NCBI GenBank assembly: GCA_028716065.1
Contig: JAQUQN010000001.1
Span: 13,266-77,265 of the forward strand
DNA length: 64,000 bases
Origin: Candidatus Omnitrophota bacterium
GTDB taxonomy: Bacteria > Omnitrophota > Gorgyraeia > 2-01-FULL-45-10
Reading direction: 5' to 3'
In this document: piece after piece, positions 12,181-59,192 of the stretch
How the letters are laid out: each line of letters begins with the position of its first letter
Position numbering within the stretch: the stretch's first letter is position 1
The notes under the pieces: model-generated
What the model saw: only the letters and a program-made list of their open reading frames with translations
Databases searched by the model: none
What the model was told of the DNA's origin: nothing
Made by a program: the position numbers and the translations under genes

Positions 12181-12181
12181 T

Positions 12182-13238: not shown

Positions 13239-13242
13239 AAAA

Positions 13243-14595: not shown

Positions 14596-14601
14596 GCTTT
14601 T

Positions 14602-15153: not shown

Positions 15154-15162
15154 GGCGCTATT

Positions 15163-16173: not shown

Positions 16174-16183
16174 ATTTAAATAG

Positions 16184-43861: not shown

Positions 43862-43887
43862 TAAAGGTAGTTATAGGGGTATTAATT

Positions 43888-44293: not shown

Positions 44294-45034
44294 ATGTCAG
44301 AAAACATAGAGAGATTACTTAAAGGGGTCAGGGCGGGGCGCCTCTCCACGGACAGGGCGCTCGGCGTATTGAAGGACCTTCCCTATAAAGACCTGGGCTT
44401 CGCGCGGATAGATAACCACAGGGCCTTGCGCCGCGGTTTTCCGGAGGTCATCTTCGGAAAGGGCAAAACTCCCGACCAGATAATAAAGATAGCCAGAAGG
44501 ATCATCTCTAGCGACGGCATACTCCTCATAACCCGCACCGATACAAAGGTCTATTCGCGGCTCAAGAAGATATATCCGAAAATAAAGTTCGACAAGAAAT
44601 CCGGCATCATATACTACAGGACCACGCCGCCTCCGATCAAGACCGGCAAGGTCCTTATCATTACCGCCGGTACCGCGGATCTGCCGGTGGCTGAAGAGGC
44701 GAGGGCCACGCTCGAGATAATGGGCGATCCGGTGGAGATATTGTGTGATGTTGGCGTCGCGGGCCTGCACAGGTTACTGGACAAGATGAAGGCGCTTGGT
44801 GAGGCGGATGTCATAATAGTCATAGCTGGCATGGAAGGGGCCCTGGCGAGCGTCGTCAGCGGCCTGGTGTCCAAGCCCGTCATAGCCGTTCCCACGAGCG
44901 TCGGTTATGGTGCGAGTTTCGGCGGGGTGGCGGCACTCCTTACCATGATGAATTCCTGTTCGCCGGGCGTCTCGGTAGTGAATATCGACAACGGTTTCGG
45001 CGCGGCATATTTCGCGAGCATGATCAATAAATAA
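44294..45034 (+). CDS. larB: LarB (nickel-pincer cofactor biosynthesis carboxylase/hydrolase, PurE-like)
   Basis: PurE-like GKVLIITAGTADLPVAEEA...VIIVIAGMEGALASVV. It directly precedes larC. Confidence 0.7.
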   Translation: MSENIERLLKGVRAGRLSTDRALGVLKDLPYKDLGFARIDNHRALRRGFPEVIFGKGKTPDQIIKIARRIISSDGILLITRTDTKVYSRLKKIYPKIKFDKKSGIIYYRTTPPPIKTGKVLIITAGTADLPVAEEARATLEIMGDPVEILCDVGVAGLHRLLDKMKALGEADVIIVIAGMEGALASVVSGLVSKPVIAVPTSVGYGASFGGVAALLTMMNSCSPGVSVVNIDNGFGAAYFASMINK

Positions 45035-45047
45035 GGTTACCTTTTGT

Positions 45048-46217
45048 ATGCGAATAGCGTATTTCGATTGTATGAGCGGCATAAGCGGGGACATGACCAT
45101 CGCGGCGTTTCTTGATGCCGGATTGAGCATGAAGACGCTTAAGGCGCAACTTGCCAGGCTGAATCTCAAAGGTTATGAAATTAAAGAGAGCAGGACGAAC
45201 AGGGGCTCTATCGATGCGGTAAAATTCGATGTCATCTGTAAAAATGAAAAACACAGCCATAGAAAACTGAAAGATATTTTGAGGCTTATAGATAAAAGCG
45301 CGCTTGATGCGGAGATAAAAAAGACGGCAAAGGATATCTTCAATAATATCGGTAATGCGGAGGCGAAGGTCCACGGCCTATCCAAAAATCAGGAGATAGA
45401 TTTTGACGAGATCGGACAGGTAGATTCCATAATAGATATAGTGGCTGTGGCGATAGCGGTCCATGAGCTGAAGATAGGCGAAGTATATTCCTCGAACATC
45501 ACGTTCGGAAGGTCCTTTACGAAAACGGCCCATGGCAGTCTGCCGATACCCGCCCCGGCGGCCCTGGAACTTCTGAAAGGCGTGCCGGCCAGGATATGCG
45601 AAATCGAGGCCGAACTCGTGACACCCACGGGCGCAGGGATACTCAAGACGCTTGCCAGGGGTTTCGGCGACATGCCGGAACTGAAGATATCGCAGATCGG
45701 TTACGGCGCCGGGACTAGAGTTTTGAAGAACATGCCGAACCTGCTTCGCGTGGTGATAGGTGAAAGGGTTCCTGCCTACATGAAGGACAGGGTAACCGTT
45801 CTGGAAACTAACATAGATGACATGAATCCGCAGAATTTTGAATATCTCTTCGAGAGGCTCTTCAAGGAAGGGGCGCTCGACGTATTCCTGGCCAACATAA
45901 TAATGAAAAAATCCAGGCCAGCGTTTAAGTTGACCGTCCTGGCCGAGCCGGTGTTGGCAGAAAAGATGAAATCGGTGATATTCAGCGAGACCTCGACCAT
46001 CGGGATAAGATATTACGAAGTGAACCGCTCAAAGCTCGAGCGTGAAACCCGTAAGGTCCATACGGGATACGGAGACGTGACCGTTAAATTTTCCTCCGGC
46101 CCCGGCAATTTACGCAATGTCGCTCCTGAGTATGAGGATTGTGTCAGGCTCGCGAAAGCGAAAAAAATACCATTAAAGGTGGTCTATGAAGAAGCTAAGA
46201 AGGCTATTAAAGTTTAG
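45048..46217 (+). CDS. larC: LarC nickel insertase (DUF111)
   Basis: MRIAYFDCMSGISGDMTIAAFLDAGL N-terminal signature, 389 aa. Confidence 0.8.
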   Translation: MRIAYFDCMSGISGDMTIAAFLDAGLSMKTLKAQLARLNLKGYEIKESRTNRGSIDAVKFDVICKNEKHSHRKLKDILRLIDKSALDAEIKKTAKDIFNNIGNAEAKVHGLSKNQEIDFDEIGQVDSIIDIVAVAIAVHELKIGEVYSSNITFGRSFTKTAHGSLPIPAPAALELLKGVPARICEIEAELVTPTGAGILKTLARGFGDMPELKISQIGYGAGTRVLKNMPNLLRVVIGERVPAYMKDRVTVLETNIDDMNPQNFEYLFERLFKEGALDVFLANIIMKKSRPAFKLTVLAEPVLAEKMKSVIFSETSTIGIRYYEVNRSKLERETRKVHTGYGDVTVKFSSGPGNLRNVAPEYEDCVRLAKAKKIPLKVVYEEAKKAIKV

Positions 46218-47839: not shown

Positions 47840-47867
47840 TTGACAATCAAAAAATCTCGGGTATACT
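47840..47867 (+). promoter_or_regulatory. Sigma70-type promoter TTGACA-N16-TATACT upstream of the HTH_17 gene and lipid operon
   Basis: TTGACA 47840-45 and TATACT 47862-67. The flanks resemble the pilA promoter (TTGACAAT...GGTATACTTT). Confidence 0.45.
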
Positions 47868-47979: not shown

Positions 47980-48174
47980 ATGCCCGAAGAAACTCTATTT
48001 ACAGTTGATGAATTGGCCACCTATCTGAGGATGAAGCCTGTTACCATATATAAACACGCTAAAGCAGGCAAACTTCCGGGATTCAAGGTAGGGGCCAACT
48101 GGCGGTTCAAGAAGTCGACTATCGATCGCTGGATCACTGACCAGGAAAAAGAACGAAATCATATCACCAAATAA
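47980..48174 (+). CDS. HTH_17 (excisionase-family) small DNA-binding protein
   Basis: FTVDELATYLRMKPVTIYKHAKAGKLPGFKVGANWRFKKSTIDRWI, 64 aa. Confidence 0.65.
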   Translation: MPEETLFTVDELATYLRMKPVTIYKHAKAGKLPGFKVGANWRFKKSTIDRWITDQEKERNHITK

Positions 48175-48175
48175 T

Positions 48176-48214
48176 ACCCAATTACTATATAGTTAATTGG
48201 GTATTTTAGTTTTA
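48176..48214 (+). terminator. Weak terminator-like hairpin after the HTH_17 gene
   Basis: ACCCAATT / AATTGGGT 8-bp stem with an 11-nt loop, followed by a T-rich run (ATTTTAGTTTTA). Confidence 0.35.
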
Positions 48215-48255
48215 GGGGAGCTGATAAGCGCGAGATACCGATCAGATTATAACCT

Positions 48256-49509
48256 ATGAATAAGAGAATAGTGATAACGGGTATAGGGGTGCTGGCATCT
48301 AATGGTATAGGTAAGAAGGCCTTCTGGGATGCGCTCAAAAAGGGCCGTTCCGGAATAAAACCGGTAACGTTATTCGATACGGGTAATTTGAGGGCAAAGA
48401 CGGCTGGAGAGATCAGCGATTTTAAACCGGAGGACATATTGGGGCCGAAGGGATTACGGAATCTTGATAGAAGCACGAAGCTCGTTCTCAGCGCCTCAAA
48501 ACTGGCGCTGGACGATGCCGGTATAAAATACCCGCTTTCAGAGGACGAGACGGATCTTTTCGGTGTTTCATTAGGTTCGACCATGGGTTCGGTGTGGTCC
48601 ATAAGCGAATTCGATAAGGAAGCGCTACGCGAGGGGCCGCGCTCGGTCAACCCGGCGCTCTTTCCAAATACCGTGATAAATTCGCCCGCGAGCCATGTAT
48701 CGATAAATTTCAATATACAGGGATTTAACGCGACCATCTCGACGGGCTTCTGTTCGAGCGTCGATGCCATCTATTATGCGATGAACATGCTGGAATTATA
48801 TGAATATGAGGTTGTTCTCACCGGGGGCGTTGAGGAATTATGCGAACAGACCTATAAGGGTTTTCATAAGATAGGACATCTGGCCGGCTCAAGGGACGGC
48901 AAGCAAGAGATCAACTGCCCGTTCGATAAACGGAGGAACGGCATCGTCTTTGGCGAAGGCGCCTGCATAGTCGTATTGGAAAAACTAGAGCATGCGCTCA
49001 AGAGAAAGGCCAGGATTTACGCGGAAGTGCTCGGTTATGGCACATCCTTCGACCCCGATAGCAGGAATATCTATAGCCCCAAAGCAAAAGGAGCCGCGGA
49101 GGCGATAAGGGCATGCCTGGCGGACGCGAAAATAGGCGCGGATGATATCGGCTATATAAGCGCGAGCGCAAATTCGACGCTCGATTGCGACGCGATGGAG
49201 GCGAAAGCAGTGACGGACGTATTCGGTGAAAGAGGCAAAAGCGTGCCGATGAGTTCCGTAAAATCGATGATAGGCGAGTCATTTTCCGCCGGCGGCGCGT
49301 TCAATGTCGCGGCAAGCGTGGGCGTATTGGAGGAGAGCTTCCTGCCGCCTACGATAAATTACGAAAAGAAGGACCGGCGCTGCGACGTCGACTGCGTGCC
49401 GAACAAGGCAAGAGACGCGAAGGTCGATAAGATACTAGTGAATTCCTTCAGCCCGACAGGTGTGAATTCGAGTTTATCAATATCAAAATACAATTATCAG
49501 GATAGCTAA
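48256..49509 (+). CDS. Beta-ketoacyl-ACP synthase homolog lacking both catalytic His residues (chain-length-factor-like KAS partner)
   Basis: KAS fold with the active-site Cys context (ISTGFCSSVDA). The HGTxT motif is replaced by SASANSTLD and the GHxxGAAG motif by GESFSAGG. Confidence 0.75.
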   Translation: MNKRIVITGIGVLASNGIGKKAFWDALKKGRSGIKPVTLFDTGNLRAKTAGEISDFKPEDILGPKGLRNLDRSTKLVLSASKLALDDAGIKYPLSEDETDLFGVSLGSTMGSVWSISEFDKEALREGPRSVNPALFPNTVINSPASHVSINFNIQGFNATISTGFCSSVDAIYYAMNMLELYEYEVVLTGGVEELCEQTYKGFHKIGHLAGSRDGKQEINCPFDKRRNGIVFGEGACIVVLEKLEHALKRKARIYAEVLGYGTSFDPDSRNIYSPKAKGAAEAIRACLADAKIGADDIGYISASANSTLDCDAMEAKAVTDVFGERGKSVPMSSVKSMIGESFSAGGAFNVAASVGVLEESFLPPTINYEKKDRRCDVDCVPNKARDAKVDKILVNSFSPTGVNSSLSISKYNYQDS

Positions 49510-50633
49510 TGATAAATAAAGTAGGTTTTATAGGTCATCCAATAGATCTGGAGCATCTATACAAAATGCTTGGACCATGGGCATTTTTTGCCAGGAAGAT
49601 AGCACCTTATCAACTTAATGCGATGCTTAAAAATATTCCGCCATATAGGCTTGTTTCGGTTAAAAATATACGATCCGCTAAGAACGCATTGATTGACTGC
49701 CACACGATTATCTGCCCTCTCATGCCTACAGCTATGGTAAGCCTTGACGAAGAGTTTGTACTTAAGAAAATAACACAAGCGGTAAAAGTTGCCGAGCGGC
49801 TAGGTGCGAAAATAGTTACGCTTGGCGGTTTCACGTCTGTGGTAGGCAATGAAGGTGAAACGGTTTCTAAACGCGTCGGTGTGCCGATTACAAGCGGTAA
49901 TACTTATACCGCGGCCCTTGCCATTGAAGGCATATTAAAGGCCGCGTATTATATGGAGATAGACCTTGCGCGGGCGACGCTTGCTGTAATAGGCGCCACA
50001 GGAGACATAGGTTCGATATGTACGAAGGTTTTATCCAAAAAGATGCAAAAGCTTAATATCGTTGCTCGGAATGAGGAACGGATGAATGTACTAATGCGGG
50101 AAGTGCAACATGATGGCAGGGTTCAAGTTGAGACATTTAAATATTACAAAGACGCCGTTAAAAACGCTGACATAATACTTGCCGTTACAAGTGCCGTTTC
50201 TACTATAATCGAGCCGGAAAATTTAAAGCCCGGTTCTATCGTCTGCGACGTCGCTATCCCGGCGAATATAGCCAAAGAAGTTGTTAATGTAAGGAATGAT
50301 GTGTTTGTCTTTGAGGGTGGATTGGCGAAACTTCCTTATCAACATGAAATAAAGGACAGGGTTTTTAACGAACTTATGCCCTCTGGAAGTATCTATGGTT
50401 GTCTTGCCGAAGGAATGGTTCTTGCTTTCGATGGAAAGTTCGAAAATTACTCTATCGGGCGCGGAAATATAACAGAAGAGAAAATTAATGAGATATCTAA
50501 AATAGCAAGAAAGCACGGCCTTCATCTTGCGGACTTTTTTTGCGGATATAGATTTTATTCCGAAGATGACATGGAATCAATCAAACGAAATGCAAAAAGG
50601 AATATCTTAAGTGGAAAATTCGTTAAAAGATAA
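49509..50633 (+). CDS. Acyl-ACP reductase (AAR) family homolog (fatty aldehyde-forming)
   Basis: Recalled cyanobacterial AAR blocks match: GFIGHPIDLEHL~GLIGHLTSLEQ; IVTLGGFTSVV~ISALGGFTSII; TSGNTYTAAL~TTGNTHTAYV; LAVIGATGDIGS~VAVVGATGDIGS; catalytic-Cys context IYGCLAEGM~MFACFAEAM; GRGNITEEKINEI~GRNQITIEKMEAI. The start overlaps the KAS1 stop by 1 nt. Confidence 0.65.
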   Translation: MINKVGFIGHPIDLEHLYKMLGPWAFFARKIAPYQLNAMLKNIPPYRLVSVKNIRSAKNALIDCHTIICPLMPTAMVSLDEEFVLKKITQAVKVAERLGAKIVTLGGFTSVVGNEGETVSKRVGVPITSGNTYTAALAIEGILKAAYYMEIDLARATLAVIGATGDIGSICTKVLSKKMQKLNIVARNEERMNVLMREVQHDGRVQVETFKYYKDAVKNADIILAVTSAVSTIIEPENLKPGSIVCDVAIPANIAKEVVNVRNDVFVFEGGLAKLPYQHEIKDRVFNELMPSGSIYGCLAEGMVLAFDGKFENYSIGRGNITEEKINEISKIARKHGLHLADFFCGYRFYSEDDMESIKRNAKRNILSGKFVKR

Positions 50634-51354
50634 AGTAGTGGTTGTTACGGGTGGTTCGCGAGGAATCGGCAGAGCGATCGTCTTTGAATTCATATATAAC
50701 GGAGCAAAGGTTGTCTTTACGTATTTAAAGAGCGATGAAGCCGCCGGTGTAGTTTTAGATGAGATAAAGGAATTAAAAGGAGAGGCAGAAGCTATAAAAT
50801 CCGATTCAAGAGATTTTATTGAGGCAAAAAAGGTCGTAGAAGAAACGGTAAAAAAATTTGGGAGGCTCGACATACTCGTAAATTCCGCCGGTATAATCAA
50901 GGATAAGGCATTAATGATGATGGAGCCTTCGGAATGGCAGGAAGTGATTAATACCAACTTAACGGGTTACTTTAATATGGCAAAGGCCTCGATAGTTACT
51001 ATGATGAAGCAAAAGAGTGGTTCGATAATAAATATATCATCAGTCGCGGGAGTCATCGGGACGGCCAGACAGGTAAATTACGCAAGCGCAAAGGCAGGCA
51101 TTATAGGTTTTACAAAATCGTTAGCCAAAGAGGTGGCTTCTTATAATATACGTGTTAATTCTGTAGCACCAGGATATATCGAAACAGACATGACAAAAGA
51201 TTTAAAGCAGAAAGAAAGCTTGCTTAAGATTATACCAGTTGCCCGTTTTGGCACACCTCAGGAAGTGGCGAAAGTGGTAGCCTTCTTAGCCAGCGAAAAG
51301 GCAAATTACATTACCGGTCAGGTAATAAAAGTAGATGGGGGATTAGCAATTTAA
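50611..51354 (+). CDS. fabG: 3-oxoacyl-ACP reductase (SDR)
   Basis: TGGSRGIG cofactor motif, NSAG, and a YxxxK catalytic dyad (YASAKAG). Confidence 0.85.
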   Translation: MENSLKDKVVVVTGGSRGIGRAIVFEFIYNGAKVVFTYLKSDEAAGVVLDEIKELKGEAEAIKSDSRDFIEAKKVVEETVKKFGRLDILVNSAGIIKDKALMMMEPSEWQEVINTNLTGYFNMAKASIVTMMKQKSGSIINISSVAGVIGTARQVNYASAKAGIIGFTKSLAKEVASYNIRVNSVAPGYIETDMTKDLKQKESLLKIIPVARFGTPQEVAKVVAFLASEKANYITGQVIKVDGGLAI

Positions 51355-51369
51355 AAATAGGAGTTATAT

Positions 51370-51624
51370 ATGCCAGAGATTAATTCGCAGAATTTGGAAC
51401 AAGAATTAAGATCGCTCATAGCCAGTATTGTCGAGATAGATGAGAAGAAGATTACACCGGAAGCAAAGTTTATCGAAGACCTGGGAATGGATTCGATGAT
51501 GGCGCTTGAAATATTAGCATCGGTGGAGAAAAAATATAAGATAAGAATACCGGAAGAAAATTTAGCAAAAATGACAAATTTAAATAAAGTTGCTGACCTC
51601 GTGAAAGGATTTTTATCAAAATGA
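51370..51624 (+). CDS. acpP: Acyl carrier protein
   Basis: DLGMDSMMALE phosphopantetheine-attachment motif, 84 aa. Confidence 0.85.
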   Translation: MPEINSQNLEQELRSLIASIVEIDEKKITPEAKFIEDLGMDSMMALEILASVEKKYKIRIPEENLAKMTNLNKVADLVKGFLSK

Positions 51625-52835
51625 AAAGGCGTGTTGTCGTGACAGGATTAGGCGCTGTAACGTCAATAGGAATCGGCAAAGATGAATTTTGGAAGAATCT
51701 TATAGCCGGAAAATCAGGGATAGGTAACGTTACCACATTTAATACATCTGATTATCCAATTAATAAAGGCGGCGAGGTCAAAAATTTTAAACCAACGGAT
51801 TTTATTTCCAAAAATAAGTTAAAAGATATGGCCAGGGCGTCTCAATTTGCTGTTGCTGCGGCAAAAATGGCACTGGAAGATGCGAAATTGAGTATAAATG
51901 AGATAAGGGAACAGAAAACCGGAACTATAATTGGGACAACAATGGCAGATATCCAATCTCTCGAGCAGATTGATAAATACTGGACTAAAAACGGCGAAGA
52001 TGAAGTTTGGCCTATAAATGTTATTAAATATCCAGGTAATGAGTTATCAGAAAATATAGGCTATTTTTTTGATATAAGCGGACCTAATTATACGATACCA
52101 ACTGCATGTTCAGCTGGTAATTACTCTATTGCATATGCATTTGATCTTATTCGTGAAAATAGATCGCATATTATGATTGCAGGAGGTACGGATCCATTTT
52201 CTAGAATTACGTTTACTGGATTTAATCGTCTTTATGCTATGGCGCCGGAAAAGTGCCAACCATTTGATAAAAATAGAAAAGGAATGATGATAGGAGAGGG
52301 TTCTGGTATTTTGATTTTAGAAGAATTGGAAGCTGCTAAAAAAAGAAAGGCAAATATTTATTGTGAGATATTAGGATATGGGTTGAGTTGCGATGCTTAC
52401 AATATGACAATTCCGCGAGTCGAAGGAGTTGTCAAAGTCATGGAAAAAGCAATAAAGAATAGTGGAGTTGCTAAGGAGGACATAGATTATATTAGCGCCC
52501 ATGGAACCGGCACTCCGGCAAATGATAAGACAGAATGTGAAGCTATAAAAAAAGTATTTGGCAATTTAAGCAAAGACTTATCAGTTAGTTCGATAAAATC
52601 GATGCTTGGTCATACTATGGGTGCCGCAAGCGCATTAGAGGCGATAACATGTTGTCTTGCCATTCAAAATTCAACTATGCCCCCAACTATTAACTACGAG
52701 ACACCCGATCCAGACTGTGATTTGGATATTACTCCTAATAATGCCAAGAAAAAGATGCTTAAAGTAGTTTTAAACAATTCTTTTGCTTTTGGTGGAAATA
52801 ATGCATGTGTGGTGTTAGGAAGGTATAGAAATTAA
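51621..52835 (+). CDS. fabF: Beta-ketoacyl-ACP synthase II (complete Cys-His-His triad)
   Basis: TACSAG (Cys), SAHGTGTPANDK (His) and GHTMGAASA (His). Confidence 0.85.
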   Translation: MKRRVVVTGLGAVTSIGIGKDEFWKNLIAGKSGIGNVTTFNTSDYPINKGGEVKNFKPTDFISKNKLKDMARASQFAVAAAKMALEDAKLSINEIREQKTGTIIGTTMADIQSLEQIDKYWTKNGEDEVWPINVIKYPGNELSENIGYFFDISGPNYTIPTACSAGNYSIAYAFDLIRENRSHIMIAGGTDPFSRITFTGFNRLYAMAPEKCQPFDKNRKGMMIGEGSGILILEELEAAKKRKANIYCEILGYGLSCDAYNMTIPRVEGVVKVMEKAIKNSGVAKEDIDYISAHGTGTPANDKTECEAIKKVFGNLSKDLSVSSIKSMLGHTMGAASALEAITCCLAIQNSTMPPTINYETPDPDCDLDITPNNAKKKMLKVVLNNSFAFGGNNACVVLGRYRN

Positions 52836-52840
52836 AAAAT

Positions 52841-53431
52841 ATGAGCACAGAATCTTTATTATTAAATTTAATAAAATCAAGAAGGACGATTAGGAAATAT
52901 AAAAAGCTGGATGTTAAAGATGACTTGATTAATAAAATATTAGAAGCAGCTAGATGGGCGCCGTCGGCGCATAATATACAACCTTGGAAATTTGTTGTTG
53001 TGAAAGATACGAGAGTAATTAATGAAATATATGAGATTATGATGAAAAAGGAAAAACAGTTGTTGGCTGGATTCAATATAGTTTTAAAGGAAACTGCCAA
53101 GTGTTTAATAAACTGTAAATGTGTAATTGTAGCTTATACAGATGGTAGCATATTAAGAAAATTCAATAGATTAGAAGAGCCATATGCGTCTATCGGAAGA
53201 ATATATGAAATTCAATCGGTGTCTTTTGCAATAGATAATATAATGTTGTATGTACATGCCTTAGGCTTAGGCACAGCATGTTTGGGAATGGCTCTATTTT
53301 GCGAAAAAGAAATCAACAAATTACTTAAACAGAAGGGTAATCTTATAGCTCTTTTATCGTTAGGTTTTCCCGATGAGACGCCTGCTGCTAGAGCACGAAA
53401 GTCTTTATTACAAGTTAGCCAAACAATATGA
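52841..53431 (+). CDS. Nitroreductase-family flavoprotein
   Basis: RRTIRKYKK...AARWAPSAHNIQPWKFVVV motif. Confidence 0.75.
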   Translation: MSTESLLLNLIKSRRTIRKYKKLDVKDDLINKILEAARWAPSAHNIQPWKFVVVKDTRVINEIYEIMMKKEKQLLAGFNIVLKETAKCLINCKCVIVAYTDGSILRKFNRLEEPYASIGRIYEIQSVSFAIDNIMLYVHALGLGTACLGMALFCEKEINKLLKQKGNLIALLSLGFPDETPAARARKSLLQVSQTI

Positions 53432-54879
53432 AAATAAGCACTAAATACGATGTGATTATTATAGGTAGTGGGATAGGGGGACTTGTTAGTGGATGCTATT
53501 TGGCAAGGGCCGGCATGAAAGTTCTAGTTGCAGAACAACACGTTAGTCCAGGAGGCTATTGTAGTTCATTTAAAAGAAGAGGATTTACTTTTGATTCGAG
53601 CATTCATTATATAAAATTTAGCGAGAAGGAAAGTTTGCTTGCCAGGATAATAGAAGATTTTAAAATAGAAAAACACATTAGATTTTATAATCTTAATCAA
53701 TCAGATTTAATTATTACACCAGCTGGCCAGTTTTATATTAATAGTGACATATCAAAAACAATAGCCAATTTAATAGATATTTTTCCTAGTGAAGAAAAGG
53801 GAATAAAGGACTTCTTTGATTTTTTGAATACAAAAAATATAGCGTTTTTATATTCTAGAACGAGAAACAGAACATTATTTGATTTGATGAAAATATATTT
53901 CAAGAATAAGGAATTGATAGCAATATTTAATTGTCTTTTAATGAATATAGGTTTGCCTATAGATAGGGTTGATGCACTAAAGGCGTATTTCTTTTTCAAG
54001 GAATTTTTCTTTAATCAAAGTTATTATCCAAGAGGTGGTATGCAAAAATTTGCAGATACATTAGCCTCTGTGTTAATAGGTTACGGGGGAGAAATAATGT
54101 ATTCTAATAGAGTTGATAAAATAATAACGAAAAATAATAAAAGTAACGGCGTGATAATTGACAAAATGAAGATTCGGTCGAATTATGTAATTAGCAATGC
54201 AGATCCTCATAACACATTCATAGAGTTAGTAGGTAAAAACAAAATATCAAAAAAATTATTGAATCGAATAAAGCGCTTAATTCCATCTATGTCCGCATTT
54301 ATTGTATATATAGGGCTAGATAGTAGTGTTAAATCGAATTATTCTATAAATAATAGTATATGGTATTTCCCATCCTCAAACTTTAACAGAACCTATGATG
54401 CGATAAGAAATGGAAAGCCAATAATAAAAGATGATTACTTAATATGCTCGTTTCCATCTTCCTATGATAAAAATCTAGCACCTAGCGGAGGCGTTTCAGT
54501 TGCCATATTTTCTGGCGCCACATTTAATACAAAAAAATATTGGGAAAACCACAGAAGAAAATTTGAAGAAAATATTATAAGGAGAGCCAGAGCCATATTT
54601 CCATGTATCTCCGAACATGTAAAAGTTTTATTATCAGCTACACCCTTTACGCTTTATAGATATACACATAATCTTAAGGGAGCTTGCTATGGGCTTGCTT
54701 CTTTAAGAACACAGATGCGCAAGACTTTTATGCCACAACAGACAGAAATAGAAAATCTTTTTATGGCTGGACATTGGACTACGCATGGAATAGGTCAAGG
54801 TGGGCTATCAATGGCAGCATTTTCTGGAGTTTCCGCCGCCAAGCGTATAATTAAACTAAAACCAGAAGGTAGATTATGA
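53428..54879 (+). CDS. FAD-dependent oxidoreductase, phytoene-desaturase (CrtI/CrtD)-like
   Basis: N-terminal dinucleotide-binding motif DVIIIGSGIGGLVSGCYLARAG...GGYCSS and a CrtI-family length of 483 aa. Confidence 0.75.
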   Translation: MKISTKYDVIIIGSGIGGLVSGCYLARAGMKVLVAEQHVSPGGYCSSFKRRGFTFDSSIHYIKFSEKESLLARIIEDFKIEKHIRFYNLNQSDLIITPAGQFYINSDISKTIANLIDIFPSEEKGIKDFFDFLNTKNIAFLYSRTRNRTLFDLMKIYFKNKELIAIFNCLLMNIGLPIDRVDALKAYFFFKEFFFNQSYYPRGGMQKFADTLASVLIGYGGEIMYSNRVDKIITKNNKSNGVIIDKMKIRSNYVISNADPHNTFIELVGKNKISKKLLNRIKRLIPSMSAFIVYIGLDSSVKSNYSINNSIWYFPSSNFNRTYDAIRNGKPIIKDDYLICSFPSSYDKNLAPSGGVSVAIFSGATFNTKKYWENHRRKFEENIIRRARAIFPCISEHVKVLLSATPFTLYRYTHNLKGACYGLASLRTQMRKTFMPQQTEIENLFMAGHWTTHGIGQGGLSMAAFSGVSAAKRIIKLKPEGRL

Positions 54880-57008
54880 CAATTTACGCATTATCTTCCT
54901 TTTCAGCATCTTTTCTTTTATATTTTCTAGCGCTTTTTGTTTATTTGAATAATAAAAAAAGATTTTTAAATCAAATTTATGCTGTTCAGGCAGTTATAAT
55001 AGGATCTTGGATATTTGGATGCTTTGGGGAAAGCGTTATAAATAACTATCAGTTTATAACCATTTGGGATAAAGCGCTAAATATTTTTGCGATATTTTCT
55101 CCACCCTTATTTTTGCATACTTATTATGCCATTCTAGGAGAAAGGGCCACTAAGCCAGTAAAATTTCTATATGCGCTATCAGTCATTTTACTATTTTTAA
55201 GTTTTAATCCTTTGTATATTAAGAGTGTTGAGTATCGATATGGTGTTAGATTTATTTCTAATCCTGGTCCGCTTTATAGCATTTTTATATTTGCTGTTTT
55301 ATTCGCTTTTTCAATTAGCTTCTATAAAATTTTTAATGCATTAAAGAATGCAGATAGTCAGAAAAAAACACAGCTTAACTATGTAATAATTGCAACAGCA
55401 AGTATGTTTATTGCGGCAGTTATATATTTAGCAATGGTTTTAAATGTAGCAATATCACCTCTTGATAATACTTTAAACTCTATATATGGGCTTCTTATTG
55501 CCTATGCCATTGTTCGTCATCAGTTGATGGATATTTCAGTAATCATAAAAAAGACCCTCGTCTTTGCGGGGCTTTTGGCTTCTGTCTTTGCAATACTGAT
55601 TTTACCTACCTTGATTATACAAGAATACTTGTTAAGAGGAGCAGGGTTTAAGGGTAGGATGATAGGCCTTACCATAAGCGGTATAATAATAATATTAACC
55701 ATGCGCAGGATCGAGAACTTTCTCATTAATATAACCGACAAATACCTCTTCCAGAAGAAATACGATTATAAGGAACTGCTCAAGACATTCACAGCAGAAG
55801 TATTAACAGTTCTAAACCTTGACAGGTTGGTGGACCTTACAATAGACAAATTATCGGATATAATCAAACTAATCTCTGCGGCAGTATTGTTATTCGATGA
55901 TGATAAACAGGAATTTAAGATAGCCGCCTCCCAAGGCATAAAAGACCCATCGCTGACGCTGATAAGGCCTGACGGCATAGTGACATTCTTAGAACAGACA
56001 CATGGTTATTTATTGAGGAAGGAATTGGTTGAAAAGAAGATATTTATACCGGATACCATAAAAGATATCATGGATAAGTTGAATGCAGAGCTCATCATAC
56101 CGATGGTGCTCCACGAAGAAGTAATAGGTGTCTTATCCCTGGGCAAGAAAAAATCAGATGAAGATTACTCTCAGGATGATTTAGATATATTACTGCCCCT
56201 GGCCAGAACCCTTGCCATCGCTATCTCGAACGCAAAACTATTCGCCGAACTCGGTAAGACTCAAGCCGAAGCTGCCCAGAGAGAGAAGATGGCGGTCATA
56301 GGGACGCTCTCGGCAGGGATAAATCACGAAATATGTAATCCGCTGGGAATAGCAAGGGGGCAGTGTGAAGCGTTCTTGTTGAATATTAAGGACGGGCTCT
56401 ATAAAGACAAGAGCCAGGAGGACCTGTTAAAAAAGGCGCAGGAGATCATGACGAAGGTCATCAAGGAGACGGACAGGGCTACGGCCATAACGAAGAAACT
56501 CTCCGGTTTTGCCAAACCCGCTAAGGGTGAAGCTGAAATGATCAATATAGATAAAGAGGTGGACGAAGTTTTGGGCCTCGTCGGTTATGAATTAAAACTG
56601 GAAAAGATAGAGGTTGAGAAACGTATCGAACAAGGCCTCCCGAGCATCTTTGTTGACAGGAAACAACTTCAGGAGGTACTGTTCAATCTCATAAGGAACG
56701 CAGGACAGGCGATAGGCGAGAAAGGCAAGATCACGGTTATAGCTAAGCAGGAGAAGAATACGATATCGATAGACATTAAAGATACGGGCTCGGGTATTCC
56801 GCAGGAGAAGATAAGAGAGTTATTCAACCCTTTCTTTACTACTAAAGAGCCGGGCAAGGGGACGGGGCTCGGGCTCTTCATAGTCCGCCAGGTCGTTGAA
56901 AAGAACGGCGGCCGTATCTATCTTAAAGAGACGAAGGTCGGCGAAGGGACGACGTTCACGCTTGAATTTCCGGCGTCCGTTTCTCAGGAAGCGAGGGTCA
57001 GGGCATGA
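54876..57008 (+). CDS. Sensor histidine kinase with a multi-TM N-terminal sensor and a GAF domain
   Basis: About 7 N-terminal TM helices, a GAF domain, HisKA (GINHEICNPL), and HATPase_c (GSGIPQE...GTGLGL). Confidence 0.8.
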   Translation: MTIYALSSFSASFLLYFLALFVYLNNKKRFLNQIYAVQAVIIGSWIFGCFGESVINNYQFITIWDKALNIFAIFSPPLFLHTYYAILGERATKPVKFLYALSVILLFLSFNPLYIKSVEYRYGVRFISNPGPLYSIFIFAVLFAFSISFYKIFNALKNADSQKKTQLNYVIIATASMFIAAVIYLAMVLNVAISPLDNTLNSIYGLLIAYAIVRHQLMDISVIIKKTLVFAGLLASVFAILILPTLIIQEYLLRGAGFKGRMIGLTISGIIIILTMRRIENFLINITDKYLFQKKYDYKELLKTFTAEVLTVLNLDRLVDLTIDKLSDIIKLISAAVLLFDDDKQEFKIAASQGIKDPSLTLIRPDGIVTFLEQTHGYLLRKELVEKKIFIPDTIKDIMDKLNAELIIPMVLHEEVIGVLSLGKKKSDEDYSQDDLDILLPLARTLAIAISNAKLFAELGKTQAEAAQREKMAVIGTLSAGINHEICNPLGIARGQCEAFLLNIKDGLYKDKSQEDLLKKAQEIMTKVIKETDRATAITKKLSGFAKPAKGEAEMINIDKEVDEVLGLVGYELKLEKIEVEKRIEQGLPSIFVDRKQLQEVLFNLIRNAGQAIGEKGKITVIAKQEKNTISIDIKDTGSGIPQEKIRELFNPFFTTKEPGKGTGLGLFIVRQVVEKNGGRIYLKETKVGEGTTFTLEFPASVSQEARVRA

Positions 57009-57376
57009 ATAAACCGCGGATCATAGCTATAGACGATGAAGCCGAGTTCATAGACATGCTGAAGAATTATTTCGCGCCGAGAGGCTATGATATCGAAGTG
57101 GCCCTGCGCGGAGCGAGCGGCATAGAACTGGTGAAGGATAAGAAACCCGACGTCGTCCTGATGGACCTGAAGATGCCGGGGATAGACGGGGACGAGGTAT
57201 TGAAGCTGCTTAAATCGATGCAGCCGTCGTCGAAGATAATATTCATAACAGCTTACGATGATGGAGGAAAGACTAAGGAGCGCCTTTTAAAGACGGGCGC
57301 TTACGCGTGTTTCGATAAACCGCTCTCATCGCTGCGTGAGCTTGAGGAGACGATCTTGCGCGCAGCCAACGAATAG
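57005..57376 (+). CDS. Single-domain response regulator (CheY-like receiver)
   Basis: IIAIDDE...DLKMPGIDG receiver motifs, 123 aa. Confidence 0.8.
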   Translation: MNKPRIIAIDDEAEFIDMLKNYFAPRGYDIEVALRGASGIELVKDKKPDVVLMDLKMPGIDGDEVLKLLKSMQPSSKIIFITAYDDGGKTKERLLKTGAYACFDKPLSSLRELEETILRAANE

Positions 57377-57378
57377 AG

Positions 57379-57786
57379 GTGGTATGTATGCCAAAACTCT
57401 TGGTTGTTGATGATGAACATGATATCTGTGATTTTGTAAAAAATTTCTTTCAGGAGAGAGGTTTCGAAGTATTCACGGCTTCGAACGGAGATGAGGCATT
57501 GGCCATGGTCAAAGAGGATAAGCCGGACATAGTCCTCCTGGATGTAAAGATGAAGGGCATGGACGGTATCGCGGCCCTGAAGCATATTAAGGACATAGAC
57601 AGGTCATTGAAGGTGATAATGGTGACCGCTCTCGAAGACCAGGATAAGATGGTGGAGGCGTCGAAACTGGGAGCGTGTGATTATATCACGAAGCCGCTCG
57701 TCCTGGACCATCTGGAGCAGACAGTAGATAAGAGGTTAAAAGAGATGCCTGATCAGGGATTAAAGGGAGAATTCAGTGAGCGCTGA
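57379..57786 (+). CDS. Single-domain response regulator (CheY-like receiver), second copy
   Basis: LLVVDDEHD...DVKMKGMDG receiver motifs, 135 aa. Confidence 0.8.
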   Translation: MVCMPKLLVVDDEHDICDFVKNFFQERGFEVFTASNGDEALAMVKEDKPDIVLLDVKMKGMDGIAALKHIKDIDRSLKVIMVTALEDQDKMVEASKLGACDYITKPLVLDHLEQTVDKRLKEMPDQGLKGEFSER

Positions 57787-59173
57787 TAAGAAAGCACCAA
57801 GCTGGGACCAGCTGCATACATGGTTCGTCGACAGGTTGTCGCACCATCCTCATGGTTCGGCCGCTGCGGGCCAGAAAGATGGTTCAGCTCCAGCGCCAGA
57901 CGGTAAGGAACGGTCAGAGCCAAGGCTGGATTATCAGTCATTTCTCGAGCGTGCGTCCAGGACCATGATCCGTTTCAAGAAGCCGGAGCATCTCATAAAG
58001 ATGATAGTCCGGACCATCGACGAACAGCTCAAGGTGACCCATACGGCGGTATTATTATTCAAAGAAGAGAAGCAATCCTTCATATTGATCGATTCGAAGG
58101 GTAGCGAAGGGAAGAAGATACCCGTCGGATTCATAAAATTAACTACGGACAACCCTTTAATAGCCGCGTTCAGCGAAAGACGTTCCTACCTCATATCGGA
58201 TACCGGTATCGTTAATTATCGCGACATAATCGAGAGCTTAAAAAACAGGGATATCTTGGAACGTCAGCCCGATCTCTATGATAGATTGATTGCCATCAAG
58301 AAGCAGATGGATCTGATAAAGGCGAACCTTTGCATTCCGTGCTACTTTAAGAGGGACCTGCTTGGCATATTGGTATTGGGTGAAAAGATATCCGGAGAGC
58401 CGTTCAGCAGGGAAGAGATGGGATTCTTCGTAACGCTGGCCAATGACGCAGCCATGGCGATAGCAAATGCGCTACTCATCGATAACCTTCAGCAGAAGAT
58501 AGAGGAGATAAAGGAACTTTTCATAAAGGAGCACAGGATATTCATACATACCTCCATAGCGCTCGCCGCTGCCATCGATGCCAGGGATCCCTACACACAC
58601 GGCCATACCGAACGTGTCACGAATTTCTGCCTAGCCATAGCGAGAGAGCTGGAAGGCGTGCCCGAAGTATCCAATTATCCTAATTTCAGGGAGACGCTGC
58701 AGATAGCCGCGCTTCTTCATGATATAGGTAAGATCGGTATTCCCGATCATATATTGAATAAGCACGGCCGGCTCACGCCGGAAGAGTTCGAAGAGATAAA
58801 GAAACATTCCGTAATAGGAGCGACTATCCTGTATCCGATCAAGGAGCTGGGAGACGTGGCAAGGGAGGTCCGTTATCACCAGGAATGTTTCGATGGTTCC
58901 GGCTATCCGGATGGCCTTAAAGGTACCGACATACCTTTGGTAGCCAGGATAATAGCCGTGGCTGACGCTTTCGATGCCATGACCACCAATAGGCCCTACC
59001 GCAAGAAGAAGACGATAGAAGACGCTATACAGGAGTTAAAACGCTGTTCCGGAACACAGTTCGACCCTTTAATAGTGAGCGCATTCCTTCTGGCCTACGA
59101 AAAGGGCAGCATCCTCAACGGTGTCAATAGAGCCATTAACGGTTCTACTAATGGTAATGGTATAAAGAAGTAG
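57776..59173 (+). CDS. GAF-HD-GYP c-di-GMP phosphodiesterase (second in the window)
   Basis: GAF domain plus HD (ALLHDIGKIGIPD) and GYP (GSGYPDG). GTG start overlapping the upstream RR gene. Confidence 0.8.
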   Translation: MSADKKAPSWDQLHTWFVDRLSHHPHGSAAAGQKDGSAPAPDGKERSEPRLDYQSFLERASRTMIRFKKPEHLIKMIVRTIDEQLKVTHTAVLLFKEEKQSFILIDSKGSEGKKIPVGFIKLTTDNPLIAAFSERRSYLISDTGIVNYRDIIESLKNRDILERQPDLYDRLIAIKKQMDLIKANLCIPCYFKRDLLGILVLGEKISGEPFSREEMGFFVTLANDAAMAIANALLIDNLQQKIEEIKELFIKEHRIFIHTSIALAAAIDARDPYTHGHTERVTNFCLAIARELEGVPEVSNYPNFRETLQIAALLHDIGKIGIPDHILNKHGRLTPEEFEEIKKHSVIGATILYPIKELGDVAREVRYHQECFDGSGYPDGLKGTDIPLVARIIAVADAFDAMTTNRPYRKKKTIEDAIQELKRCSGTQFDPLIVSAFLLAYEKGSILNGVNRAINGSTNGNGIKK

Positions 59174-59192
59174 GGGACATTTAAATGTCCCC
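59173..59192. terminator. Perfect 20-nt palindrome GGGGACATTTAAATGTCCCC immediately after the HD-GYP stop (no U-tract)
   Basis: 10-bp arms with zero loop. A possible operon-end hairpin or protein site. Confidence 0.3.

Follow-up and report, generated by a model that had tools for sequence, protein, structure and literature searches.

The window, a 64-kb stretch of a contig from a Candidatus Omnitrophota bacterium, contains a 12-gene operon at positions 47980–59173, with all genes on the plus strand. The operon and its flanking signals comprise the following features:

47840..47867, + strand: promoter-like site TTGACA-16-TATACT upstream of the HTH gene (consensus scan, 11/12; pattern match only)
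47980..48174, + strand: 64-aa HTH_17 (MerR/excisionase-type) DNA-binding protein (ORF; Pfam HTH_17 called on orthologs)
48173..48215, + strand: terminator- or attenuator-like hairpin with U tract in the interval between the HTH gene and KS1 (RNA fold, −19.1 kcal/mol)
48256..49509, + strand: KS1, triad-less and chain-length-factor-like, amxFabFmut family (Pfam ketoacyl-synt N and C domains)
49509..50633, + strand: predicted AAR/PigE-family NAD(P)H-dependent acyl-thioester reductase (NCBIfam, PDB matches, AF2 model)
50611..51354, + strand: FabG-type 3-oxoacyl-ACP reductase (TIGR01830; adh_short)
51370..51624, + strand: dedicated, amxACP-like ACP with DSM phosphopantetheine site (PP-binding domain)
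51621..52835, + strand: KS2, amxFabF2 family, Cys-His-His triad intact (best PDB match 9s5h_B)
52841..53431, + strand: nitroreductase-family flavoprotein, accessory tailoring gene (Pfam Nitroreductase, E 2.2e-29)
53428..54879, + strand: CrtI/CrtISO-like FAD oxidoreductase, homolog of the anammox 'PDH' (Amino_oxidase and NAD_binding_8 domains)
54876..57008, + strand: 7TM (HisKA_7TM)-GAF-HisKA-HATPase sensor histidine kinase (Pfam)
57005..57376, + strand: stand-alone response-regulator receiver 1 (Response_reg, E 3.2e-23)
57379..57786, + strand: stand-alone response-regulator receiver 2 (Response_reg, E 2.6e-31)
57776..59173, + strand: GAF-HD-GYP protein, predicted c-di-GMP phosphodiesterase (HD_5, E 2.4e-41; HD; GAF)
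59173..59192, no strand assigned: perfect palindrome GGGGACATTTAAATGTCCCC at the stop codon of the last gene, possible terminator stem (terminator-like scan; pattern match only)

An earlier note on this DNA had described a cluster of seven genes at 48256–54879. We confirmed the content of these seven genes, but the limits were drawn too narrowly, missing the HTH gene, the kinase, both receivers and the GAF-HD-GYP gene. The note had also counted 1–4-nt overlaps at five of six junctions, whereas the actual count is three of six (1 nt at KS1/AAR, 4 nt at ACP/KS2 and 4 nt at nitroreductase/CrtI-like); the AAR and FabG genes overlap by 23 nt, and gaps of 15 and 5 nt separate FabG from ACP and KS2 from the nitroreductase, respectively. 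Overlaps of 4 nt also join the CrtI-like gene to the histidine kinase and the kinase to receiver 1. In a comparison of five loci, a hairpin lies at the same position between the HTH gene and KS1 in L001, L004, L009 and L013, with differing sequences, and none was found in L003.

KS2 has an intact Cys-His-His triad, bearing out its earlier description as complete. KS1 had been described as lacking its catalytic His residues; these are indeed missing, but so is the Cys, with Phe, Ser and Glu in place of Cys164, His304 and His341, respectively (E. coli FabF numbering). The F/S/E residues, together with K336, are kept in all KS1 orthologs, and a Cys at +1 from the Cys164 position varies among them. 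Judged by its sequence, KS1 is a catalytically dead, chain-length-factor-like partner. The best PDB matches of KS1 and KS2 are 9s5h_C (E 2.8e-115) and 9s5h_B (E 2.1e-155), and the two proteins are 47% and 55% identical to anammox amxFabFmut and amxFabF2, with which they form clades separate from housekeeping FabF (neighbour-joining bootstrap 100/100 for each). Similarly, the top PDB matches of the ACP are the anammox ACP chains 7qv0_D, 7auf_A and 9s5i_E, and its identity to amxACP is 43%. KS1 is at least as conserved as KS2 (67–91% versus 60–72% in comparable pairs), a level that is unusual for a passive partner. Because KS1 and KS2 are set apart by three genes in the window, and because at least one complete-genome locus, L003 (CP070780), carries KS1-AAR-FabG-ACP with no KS2, CrtI-like gene or kinase nearby, KS1 may do more than pair with KS2.

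The ACP scores 58.2 bits against the NCBIfam acpP equivalog TIGR00517 (cutoff 70.45), and KS2 scores 452 bits against the fabF equivalog (cutoff 493.75) while passing the KAS II subfamily cutoff. FabG, with YxxxK and TGGSRGIG motifs in its translation, barely exceeds the TIGR01830 cutoff (299.5 versus 297.75 bits). Separate canonical fabG-acpP-fabF genes occur inside the same loci in L020, L111, L116 and L120, and those of related loci score 338, 117 and 658 bits. Because the ACP and KS2 fall under their equivalog cutoffs and relatives carry the canonical genes as well, sequence comparison supports a dedicated gene set distinct from housekeeping FAS, as the earlier note had proposed.

The gene at 49509–50633 had been called an acyl-ACP reductase (AAR). 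In HMM searches it matched the AAR/PigE family, the best-scoring named family being the NCBIfam PigE N-terminal region (194.5 bits, E 3e-57), and its best PDB match was 4ppm (E 3.9e-35), with the AAR structure 6jzq at E 5.9e-30. The catalytic Cys aligns with AAR Cys294 and PigE Cys296, and this residue, Cys298, is invariant across 15 reductase homologs together with the GATGDIG Rossmann motif. The best folds for an AF2 model (pLDDT 88) were AAR structures, with target-normalised TM scores of 0.80–0.84. The earlier call therefore holds at the family level, on the basis of the Cys, GATGDIG and the fold, but an equivalog of the cyanobacterial AAR is ruled out by a TIGR04058 score of 147.3 bits, far under the cutoff of 449.7. 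Sequence and model together place the protein as a true AAR-family homolog that is closer to the PigE reductase domain. PigE/AAR chemistry proceeds through an acyl-Cys intermediate followed by NADPH reduction to an aldehyde, although the PigE reductase domain itself proved difficult to assay in vitro (PMC8341465). We reasonably infer that the Omnitrophota enzyme likewise makes an aldehyde by reductive release. AAR-family members elsewhere have greatly differing partners, including ThDP enzymes (adjoining the homologs in L022 and L035), nitrogenase-like proteins and P450/ADO-like proteins, with an ADO-like di-iron protein adjoining the Bacteroidota homologs. As an independent echo, Anaerolineae AAR-like genes adjoin REC-GGDEF and a giant multi-GAF kinase.

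Only some relatives have the nitroreductase gene: L001 lacks it, L102 has one copy and L004 has two. The CrtI-like protein shares 32% identity with amxPDH (E about 1e-78 to 1e-81), and its gene, with a GC3 of 0.25, is hypervariable by sequence comparison: its products share only 28–42% identity between loci whose KS1 proteins are about 70% identical. The cluster in the window contains no dehydratase, enoyl reductase, acyltransferase or PPTase, implying reliance on housekeeping enzymes, and the 64-kb window contains no further FAS genes.

Co-occurrence of the biosynthetic genes, which the earlier note had suggested checking, was found in dozens of independent Omnitrophota contigs, and the arrangement is therefore not due to chance. 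The HTH_17 protein, a likely regulator, has orthologs (67–84% identity) encoded immediately ahead of KS1 in most Omnitrophota loci. Many relatives have an amxFabZ-like gene between ACP and KS2, and distant lineages retain a minimal FabZ-KS2-AAR-HK-RR-HD-GYP form. Of all the neighbours, the most strongly conserved, and the one that says most about function, is the histidine kinase/receiver/HD-GYP module, which follows the biosynthetic genes in 17 of the 18 genome loci with enough downstream sequence, as well as in most metagenome loci, and is retained even where gene order is rearranged. Within it, the order of receivers 1 and 2 is conserved by synteny, and the GAF-HD-GYP gene is conserved at the operon end.

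The kinase core is conserved, and the membrane sensor part of the kinase forms a hypervariable, low-GC segment with the tailoring enzyme. In 35 pairs with kinase-core identity held at 70–85%, the 7TM part was around 59% identical where the CrtI-like genes were at least 50% identical and around 32% where they were below that value (Spearman 0.68), whereas AAR, KS2 and kinase-core identities were alike in both groups. A partial Mantel test gave r(HK_N, CrtI | HK_C) = 0.53 (p = 0.0005). The sensor part thus co-varies with the CrtI-like gene and not with its own kinase core, which suggests that the kinase senses the product or a derivative of it. Physical linkage, with adjacent DNA replaced together, could also produce this pattern, and in L136 compared with L141/L143 it is AAR, rather than the CrtI-like gene, that the 7TM part travels with. 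The low GC3 of the 7TM part may be due in part to the codon usage of membrane segments.

Together, these results make it moderately probable that the 12-gene operon, conserved across Omnitrophota, encodes a dedicated type II FAS/PKS-like assembly line with reductive off-loading. By analogy with the anammox amxFabF2/amxFabFmut heterodimer, KS2 would pair with the triad-less KS1, and the pair would prime via malonyl-ACP decarboxylation and elongate a chain on the amxACP-like carrier of the cluster. FabG would reduce the β-keto group. Dehydration would be carried out by the cluster FabZ in many relatives, whereas the cluster in the window would have to rely on the housekeeping enzyme for this step. 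Tailoring of the chain would fall to the CrtI-like flavoprotein and the nitroreductase, which would probably introduce or remove double bonds. The AAR/PigE-family reductase would then take the acyl chain onto its conserved Cys, reduce the thioester with NAD(P)H and release a fatty aldehyde, which might be further reduced to an alcohol; a short to medium chain length is probable, and unsaturation is possible. In the most likely reading of the signalling module, the kinase would detect the product, or a compound derived from it, in the membrane and adjust c-di-GMP.

A different use of the same chemistry, tentative but deserving consideration, is that the product is a bulk membrane-lipid building block, with the aldehyde or alcohol feeding alkyl-ether or unusual lipids and the kinase monitoring membrane state. 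Across the phylum the operon is conserved and very common, and several lineages have it immediately ahead of housekeeping fabG-acpP-fabF, or close to plsX-fabH-fabD. Its anammox homologs are tied to membrane lipids, among them ether-bound alkyl chains as well as alcohols; in addition, many Black Sea Omnitrophota MAGs have ElbD-like ether-lipid genes (PMC11868695). However, the operon encodes no glycerol-linking enzyme (AGPS, PlsA/Ger or ElbD-like), and a comparison of close relatives shows its tailoring genes and sensor domain to be hypervariable and mosaic, which would be odd for a core membrane-lipid pathway. Its output, moreover, is c-di-GMP turnover via stand-alone receivers and not a DNA-binding regulator of lipid genes. 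We consider it improbable that the AAR-like protein is not the off-loader of this ACP line, acting instead on another thioester or as a partner or scaffold for KS1 while the chain is released otherwise. Neither a thioesterase nor any alternative release enzyme is encoded in the operon, AAR is the only biosynthetic gene that stays with KS2 in all minimal versions, and the catalytic Cys and NAD(P)H motif are invariant. In favour of this reading, many loci show translational coupling of KS1 to AAR, L003 and L012 have this pair but no KS2, and family members elsewhere pair with very different proteins.

Plain housekeeping fatty-acid synthesis with a few unrelated neighbours might account for FabG and KS2, which pass the fabG equivalog and KAS II subfamily cutoffs, and for the lack of other FAS genes in the window; set against an ACP and a KS2 that fail their equivalog cutoffs, a KS1 that appears catalytically dead, KS clades separate from housekeeping FabF and a second canonical fabG-acpP-fabF set in related loci, this is very improbable. 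We give next to no credence to a cyanobacterial-type alkane pathway, in which AAR would feed a deformylating oxygenase (ADO) encoded elsewhere in the genome. It draws on the family homology and fold of the reductase and on the ADO-like neighbour in Bacteroidota, but the reductase scores far under the AAR equivalog cutoff, none of the related Omnitrophota loci was seen with an ADO beside the cluster, and, in line with the earlier note, Pfam scans of the operon genes and of the larger window ORFs turned up no ADO-like protein. ADO also requires O2, and most Omnitrophota are anaerobic. Finally, four of the six genes of anammox Cluster I have homologs in the cluster (five of six in relatives), and the partial gene order ACP-FabZ-KS-PDH is shared. 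These similarities raise the idea, which an antiSMASH-type label would suggest as well, that the cluster makes ladderane or ladderane-like cyclobutane lipids. This is extremely unlikely, as the B12-binding radical-SAM gene, the only Cluster I gene suited to C–C cyclisation, is absent from the window and every related locus examined, ladderanes are known from anammox bacteria only, and even the full anammox cluster yielded none in E. coli (PMC4790861).

Our preferred reading of a dedicated line with reductive off-loading has parallels in several known systems. The cyanobacterial AAR (TIGR04058; PDB 6JZU) shares the fold, GATGDIG nucleotide motif and aligned catalytic Cys of the Omnitrophota reductase and, as predicted from sequence, its conversion of acyl-thioester to aldehyde; identity between the two is only about 27–30%, and AAR draws on bulk FAS, whereas the Omnitrophota enzyme has no ADO partner and sits in a KS/CLF/ACP line. 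The PigE N-terminal thioester-reductase domain (prodigiosin MAP branch; PDB 4PPM) has the conserved catalytic Cys and makes an aldehyde from a medium-chain thioester specific to its pathway (PMC8341465). Unlike PigE, the Omnitrophota reductase is stand-alone, with no aminotransferase fusion and no PigD-type ThDP enzyme. The highly reducing type II PKS KS/CLF of ishigamide (Iga11/Iga12, PDB 6KXD) also combines an active KS and a triad-less paralog with a discrete ACP and a ketoreductase, and Iga11 is the second-best solved match for KS2 (351 bits). KS1, however, is a member of a separate family, large and for the most part uncharacterised, whose signature across the triad and adjacent positions is x/x/N/x/K/E, and the Omnitrophota operon has a proposed reductive release and no amide-forming or aromatising enzymes.

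In the RpfF-RpfC-RpfG DSF system, a fatty-acid-derived biosynthetic step, a membrane histidine kinase and an HD-GYP output are encoded together, and agr and comQXP pherotype loci combine a variable biosynthesis/sensor segment with a conserved kinase core. The Omnitrophota operon may be analogous to the former in uniting fatty-acid-type biosynthesis, a membrane histidine kinase and HD-GYP, and to the latter in placing a hypervariable tailoring enzyme and sensor domain beside a conserved kinase core. It differs from these systems in having no RpfF-type crotonase or peptide signal, and from Rpf in that its receivers are stand-alone and its HD-GYP protein carries GAF rather than REC. The proposed analogy is a functional one.

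The closest parallel by homology is anammox Cluster I, KustE3603-3608, which comprises amxACP, amxFabZ, amxFabF2, amxFabFmut, the phytoene-dehydrogenase-like PDH and a B12 radical SAM protein. Both systems have one active and one apparently dead KS, and Omnitrophota relatives with the amxFabZ-like gene share the ACP-FabZ-KS-PDH order. The Omnitrophota operon differs in its host, which is not one of the Brocadiales and belongs to a group with no known ladderanes, in having no FabZ in the window and non-adjacent KS1 and KS2, and in adding the AAR/PigE-type reductase, FabG, nitroreductase, HTH regulator and HK-RR-RR-HD-GYP module. Cluster I has been studied structurally, with amxFabF2/amxFabFmut forming a KS/CLF-like heterodimer that decarboxylates malonyl-ACP and prefers C6–C8 probes (bioRxiv 10.64898/2026.05.19.726425), and earlier work on Omnitrophota MAGs had already reported antiSMASH 'ladderane' clusters, without assigning them a function (PMC9902471). 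To call the operon undescribed, as had been done, was therefore an overstatement, given that KS1, KS2, the ACP and the CrtI-like protein are Cluster I homologs. The anammox "ladderane" cluster was thought to be unique to anammox bacteria; its core genes have relatives in Omnitrophota.

The operon at 47980–59173 is real and conserved, and its genes are a dedicated set: they make up a type II FAS/PKS-like cluster of the 'ladderane type', with proposed reductive release, that carries its own sensor module. Its seven biosynthetic genes all lie on the forward strand and belong to the families that the earlier note had given them:

48256–49509, forward: ketosynthase (KS1)
49509–50633, forward: reductase of the AAR/PigE family (AAR)
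50611–51354, forward: FabG
51370–51624, forward: carrier protein of 84 aa (ACP)
51621–52835, forward: ketosynthase (KS2)
52841–53431, forward: nitroreductase
53428–54879, forward: CrtI-like protein

The gene junctions vary more than that note had claimed (1–4-nt overlaps at five of the six junctions), with overlaps of 1, 23, 4 and 4 nt and gaps of 15 and 5 nt, and the bounds that it had drawn at 48256–54879 proved too narrow. Upstream of KS1, most loci carry a 64-aa HTH_17 gene (47980–48174 in the window), and a terminator-like hairpin between this gene and KS1 is conserved in position across loci. Pattern scans found a strong promoter-like site 5′ of the HTH gene and a palindrome at the HD-GYP stop codon, and no riboswitch or other known RNA in Rfam matched anywhere in the window, leader included. 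Downstream, a histidine kinase gene (HK, HisKA_7TM-GAF; 54876–57008) overlaps the CrtI-like gene by 4 nt and the first of two stand-alone receiver genes (RR; 57005–57376 and 57379–57786) by 4 nt, followed by a GAF-HD-GYP gene (57776–59173). With its conserved neighbours, the functional unit spans 47980–59173.

The co-occurrence raised by the earlier note is borne out, as the gene set was found again, in varying order, across Omnitrophota contigs from both genomes and metagenomes. Of 18 genome loci with enough sequence, 17 have the signalling module after their last biosynthetic gene, as do most of the long metagenome loci, and the module keeps this position even where AAR has shifted to the end of the biosynthetic block. 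Nitroreductase genes number zero, one or two, and distant lineages have the minimal form FabZ-KS2-AAR-HK-RR-HD-GYP. In many loci an amxFabZ-like dehydratase (42–48% identity) lies between ACP and KS2, which reproduces the anammox order ACP-FabZ-KS...PDH.

Three HTH_17 proteins are encoded inside 5 kb of the window (43165–43728, 43849–44289 and 47980–48174); one is a bactofilin fusion, to whose C-terminal end the small HTH protein 5′ of KS1 shows 36% identity. Further c-di-GMP genes (3412–4842 and 26764–27888) encode a HAMP-GAF-GGDEF protein, adjoining a type IV pilus gene set (4839–19476), and a second GAF-HD-GYP paralog that is 41% identical to that of the operon. Just 5′ of the operon (44294–46217) are genes for making the nickel-pincer cofactor (LarB-like, AIRC; LarC-like, Ni_insertion), which are syntenic in the related locus L001 and not in more distant loci, and thus lie outside the cluster.

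The two ketosynthases, both confirmed, differ in their active sites. Aligned to E. coli FabF, KS2 has Cys164, His304 and His341, whereas KS1 has Phe, Ser and Glu at these positions and retains Lys336; the catalytic histidines that the earlier note had found missing from KS1 are indeed replaced, but so is the cysteine, so that the whole triad is gone. All KS1 orthologs examined have Phe or Met at 164, Ser, Thr, Asn or Cys at 304 and Glu or Asp at 341, and the Cys adjoining the Phe in the window KS1 is not conserved among them. The pattern of one intact-triad subunit (KS2, C/H/H) and one triad-less subunit (KS1, F/S/E) is kept in all orthologs.

The best solved relatives of KS1 and KS2 are two chains of one PDB entry, 9s5h, namely chain C for KS1 (E 2.8e-115; runner-up 2e-76) and chain B for KS2 (E 2.1e-155; runner-up 5e-104); the top three solved matches of the ACP are 7qv0_D, 7auf_A and 9s5i_E. 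A sequence search with 9s5h_C led to proteins of Brocadia, Jettenia and Scalindua, whose loci have the order ACP, FabZ, KS, KS, amine-oxidase-family protein and B12 radical SAM, which is anammox Cluster I (KustE3603–3608). In the window, homologs of amxACP, amxFabF2, amxFabFmut and the phytoene-dehydrogenase-like protein (PDH) of Cluster I are clustered together:

BLASTP identity of window proteins to anammox Cluster I proteins
KS1 and amxFabFmut: 47%
KS2 and amxFabF2: 55%
ACP and amxACP: 43%
CrtI-like protein and PDH: 32% (E about 1e-78 to 1e-81)

A neighbour-joining tree, built without Kuste2805 (another anammox KS that lacks the triad and has Phe in place of the Cys), grouped KS1 orthologs with amxFabFmut and KS2 orthologs with amxFabF2, each with 100/100 bootstrap support and both apart from housekeeping FabF. 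An exhaustive search of 1.84 billion representatives placed KS1 in a large family of mostly uncharacterised triad-less KS homologs with the signature x/x/N/x/K/E, in which more than 50 representative clusters match KS1 at E below 1e-77. Since some of these match KS1 as closely as the anammox proteins do, the anammox pair is the closest characterised relative and not necessarily the closest relative. Among the closest CLF-like representative clusters one is from Poribacteria, and the others are almost without taxonomy.

The anammox proteins amxFabF2 and triad-less amxFabFmut are reported to form a KS/chain-length-factor-like heterodimer that decarboxylates malonyl-ACP and prefers C6–C8 probes, a physical pairing demonstrated for the anammox proteins only (2026 preprint, bioRxiv 10.64898/2026.05.19.726425); for the Omnitrophota pair, heterodimer formation and chain length are what we infer. 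These best-studied relatives offer no product to extrapolate from, because Kuste3607, the anammox PDH homolog, has no phytoene desaturase activity and E. coli expressing kuste3603–3608 made no new fatty acids (PMC4790861).

Three further observations concern KS1. Many representatives of about 800 aa match it in two stretches, which suggests, from the alignments, fused KS–CLF-like proteins. Dozens of distinct triad-less KS families share Asn306, Lys336 and Glu341, a large uncharacterised CLF-like superfamily in metagenomes. One complete Omnitrophota genome (CP070780.1, 8524–12120; recorded as both L003 and L010) has a reduced HTH-KS1-AAR-FabG-ACP set, near which neither KS2 nor a CrtI-like protein nor the kinase is encoded. 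There the opposite strand bears a 745-aa AMP-binding/PP-binding gene, and rpmF-plsX-fabH-fabD is 7 kb off; a KS1 without KS2 raises the question of the role of triad-less KS1 minus its presumed partner.

The reductase at 49509–50633, which the earlier note had assigned to AAR, belongs with AAR at the level of the superfamily but is not an AAR equivalog. Pfam sees a Shikimate_DH-type Rossmann domain, and the best NCBIfam family is the PigE N-terminal region (194.5 bits, E 3e-57), followed by TIGR04058, the cyanobacterial acyl-ACP reductase (147.3 bits, E 6.8e-43), whose curated equivalog cutoff of 449.7 bits, our test for AAR, is not reached. The closest solved structures are PigE 4PPM (E 3.9e-35) and AAR 6JZQ and 6JZU (both about 6e-30; 5.9e-30 for 6jzq). 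Its segment YGCLAEG aligns with the catalytic-Cys segments of AAR (FACFAEA, Cys294) and PigE (NGCMAET, Cys296), and both Cys298 and the nucleotide motif GATGDIG, which fits the Rossmann pattern GxTGxIG, are unchanged in 15 homologs. With an AlphaFold (AF2) model of the reductase (pLDDT 88, pTM 0.89), Foldseek returned AAR structures as the best folds (E 2e-25, TM 0.77/0.84, target-normalised TM 0.80–0.84). The protein thus has the full-length homology, fold, catalytic Cys and Rossmann motif of the AAR/PigE thioester-reductase superfamily (COG5322-type), of which the PigE N-terminal domain, a thioester reductase of the AAR/GluTR type, is reported to form an acyl-Cys intermediate that is reduced with NADPH to the aldehyde (PMC8341465).

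AAR-like genes also occur in other settings. In Anaerolineae (L029:10004–20287; also L023 and L026) one is followed by a REC-GGDEF gene and the gene of a 2733-aa hybrid kinase (HAMP-10xGAF-PAS-HisKA-HATPase-REC-REC). An AAR-family gene thus adjoins c-di-GMP/GAF signalling genes in a second phylum too, an independent echo of the operon. In Flagellimonas sp. GZD32 (L050:8280–12188), the locus examined among the Bacteroidota loci L034–L063, a homolog (35% identity) adjoins genes for an Ald_deCOase-like di-iron protein, an AhpC-like protein and a cytochrome P450, and judged by its gene content this locus may hold a non-cyanobacterial AAR–ADO-like pair. AAR-like genes beside those of ThDP-dependent enzymes in a Planctomycetota MAG (L022:5352–8375) and a Hyphomicrobiales MAG (L035:7654–11101) are reminiscent of the PigD/PigE pairing in the MAP branch of prodigiosin synthesis, and in Spirochaetales (L030:2999–7779) the AAR-like gene is flanked by nitrogenase-like genes (NifH-family, Oxidored_nitro) and a radical-SAM gene.

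Three known pathways were considered and rejected. The view of the earlier note that this is not housekeeping FAS holds, because the ACP (58.2 bits) misses the acpP equivalog cutoff of 70.45, KS2 (452.1 bits) misses the fabF cutoff of 493.75, KS1 is catalytically dead and a second, canonical fabG-acpP-fabF set follows the HD-GYP gene in four related loci (L020, L111, L116 and L120); the L020 copies, the only ones scored, reach 338, 117 and 658 bits, each over its cutoff. No other FAS genes, FabZ or B12 radical-SAM gene were found within the 64-kb window. A cyanobacterial alkane pathway fails on the low TIGR04058 score and on the absence of an aldehyde-deformylating oxygenase, which that note had also reported: Pfam gave no Ald_deCOase match among the operon genes and the larger window ORFs scanned. 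Ladderane synthesis is rejected because the B12-binding radical SAM of Cluster I is absent from the window and from every related Omnitrophota-type locus examined; the sole radical-SAM gene of the window (1609–3366) is of the Radical_SAM_N2 type, lies 46 kb away and has no B12-binding domain match. The FabZ dehydratase of Cluster I is absent from the window but present in related loci such as L006, L007, L018, L019 and L111.

As a separate observation, in the lineage of L111, L116, L120 and L020 the canonical fabG-acpP-fabF comes immediately after the specialised cluster and its HK-RR-HK-HD-GYP genes, and the specialised operon is thus embedded in a fatty-acid synthesis locus there.

In the pathway that we propose, KS2 and KS1 would start a chain on the dedicated ACP and extend it, the β-keto group would be reduced by FabG, and dehydration would fall to a cluster FabZ or the housekeeping FabZ. 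The CrtI-like and nitroreductase flavoproteins would tailor the unsaturation of the chain and the AAR/PigE-type enzyme would release it as an aldehyde. The 7TM-GAF kinase would then detect the product or a derivative and act through the receivers on the HD-GYP protein, a predicted c-di-GMP phosphodiesterase.

The composition of the operon is mosaic. In the window, GC3 is about 0.60 in KS1 and the flanks, falls to 0.25–0.39 from AAR to the first 300 kinase codons (49509–55775), and returns to 0.55–0.65 in the kinase core, receivers, HD-GYP gene and flanks. In other loci, low GC3 is confined to the CrtI-like gene, the nitroreductase gene and, within the kinase gene, the first ~200 codons (the 7TM part). 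A chimeric assembly would give such a trough, but is unlikely because the ORFs stay open across the GC shifts, an 87.8-kb NCBI contig (a Candidatus Omnitrophica MAG) encodes identical proteins and low GC3 over the CrtI-like gene and the 7TM part is seen again in independent loci. The pattern suggests repeated cassette replacement, with a larger replaced tract in the window genome. The low-GC3 segments are also the least conserved: between loci with 70–90% identical KS1, FabG, kinase core and HD-GYP, the CrtI-like proteins are 28–42% and the 7TM parts 22–47% identical.

We analysed co-variation among 33 non-redundant loci, with a controlled set of 35 pairs at 70–85% kinase-core identity:

Median identities of pairs grouped by CrtI-like identity
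CrtI-like identity at least 50%: 7TM 59%, AAR 49%, KS2 63%, kinase core 75%
CrtI-like identity below 50%: 7TM 32%, AAR 48%, KS2 64%, kinase core 77%

In the controlled pairs, Spearman correlations of CrtI-like identity were 0.68 with the 7TM part, 0.11 with AAR, 0.10 with KS2 and 0.01 with the kinase core. The partial Mantel r between the 7TM part and the CrtI-like protein given the kinase core was 0.53 (permutation p = 0.0005). Loci without a CrtI-like gene have similar 7TM parts and divergent kinase cores (for example L008/L013/L014 and L109/L116). Between locus L136 and loci L141 and L143, AAR and the 7TM part are 86–89% identical and the kinase core 41–44%, which puts a recombination breakpoint within the kinase gene. 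That the genes are neighbours on the DNA is a genuine confounder of the co-variation; where the order is CrtI-AAR-HK, the AAR lying between co-varies less in the controlled set. The co-variation is what would be expected if the 7TM domain recognises the tailored product, and is supportive, not decisive.

A bolder reading, which we consider possible though less likely than not, takes the operon for a lipid-signal circuit that is complete in itself and whose specificity cassettes can be exchanged. The KS/CLF–ACP line with AAR-type reductive release would yield a small fatty aldehyde or alcohol as signal, the hypervariable CrtI-like and nitroreductase genes would set its exact structure, and the co-varying 7TM domain would be the cognate receptor, acting through the stand-alone receivers on the HD-GYP c-di-GMP phosphodiesterase. 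Such a circuit would add a new class to bacterial signalling chemistry, one that diversifies in a pherotype-like way, in a phylum whose members are mostly ultra-small and possibly host-dependent, and Cluster I would derive from such a module by recruitment of the B12 radical SAM.

Desulfotalea and Geobacter have been noted to carry comparable extended FASII clusters, in which triad-less KS paralogs occur together with genes of the phytoene-dehydrogenase type (Rattray et al. 2009, PMC2649909), and antiSMASH 'ladderane' clusters, expressed in situ and without assigned function, have been reported in Omnitrophota MAGs (Geller-McGrath et al. 2023, PMC9902471). Two large Omnitrophota genome papers make no mention of lipids, polyketides or c-di-GMP. 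Literature searches gave nothing relevant on AAR in Omnitrophota or on non-cyanobacterial AAR homologs, and in the literature searched we found neither an AAR-type reductase described in such a cluster nor any account of the HK/HD-GYP coupling or the sensor/tailoring mosaic. The operon gives AAR/PigE-type reductases a setting new to them, in which the enzyme would off-load from a dedicated KS/CLF line, and its tight, widely conserved 7TM kinase/HD-GYP coupling together with the sensor/tailoring co-variation gives a testable hypothesis of lipid-based signalling in an uncultured phylum.

Ladderane biosynthesis is a long-standing open problem, and Cluster I has been described as exclusive to ladderane producers. 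A conserved operon of non-anammox Omnitrophota unites four of the six Cluster I gene families (five of six in relatives, with part of the gene order shared), and the claim that only anammox bacteria have Cluster I needs to be qualified. That only the B12 radical SAM is missing from the Omnitrophota version points to it as the ladderane-specific step, and makes the operon a natural 'minus radical-SAM' system for asking what the KS/CLF–ACP–FabZ–PDH core makes. The likeness to DSF/Rpf, with a membrane kinase and an HD-GYP protein, is functional only, as the crotonase-family synthase RpfF is absent and Pfam found no ECH/crotonase domain in the operon genes. The tailoring/sensor mosaic of the window type has a pattern similar to that of agr and comQXP, which are specificity cassettes.
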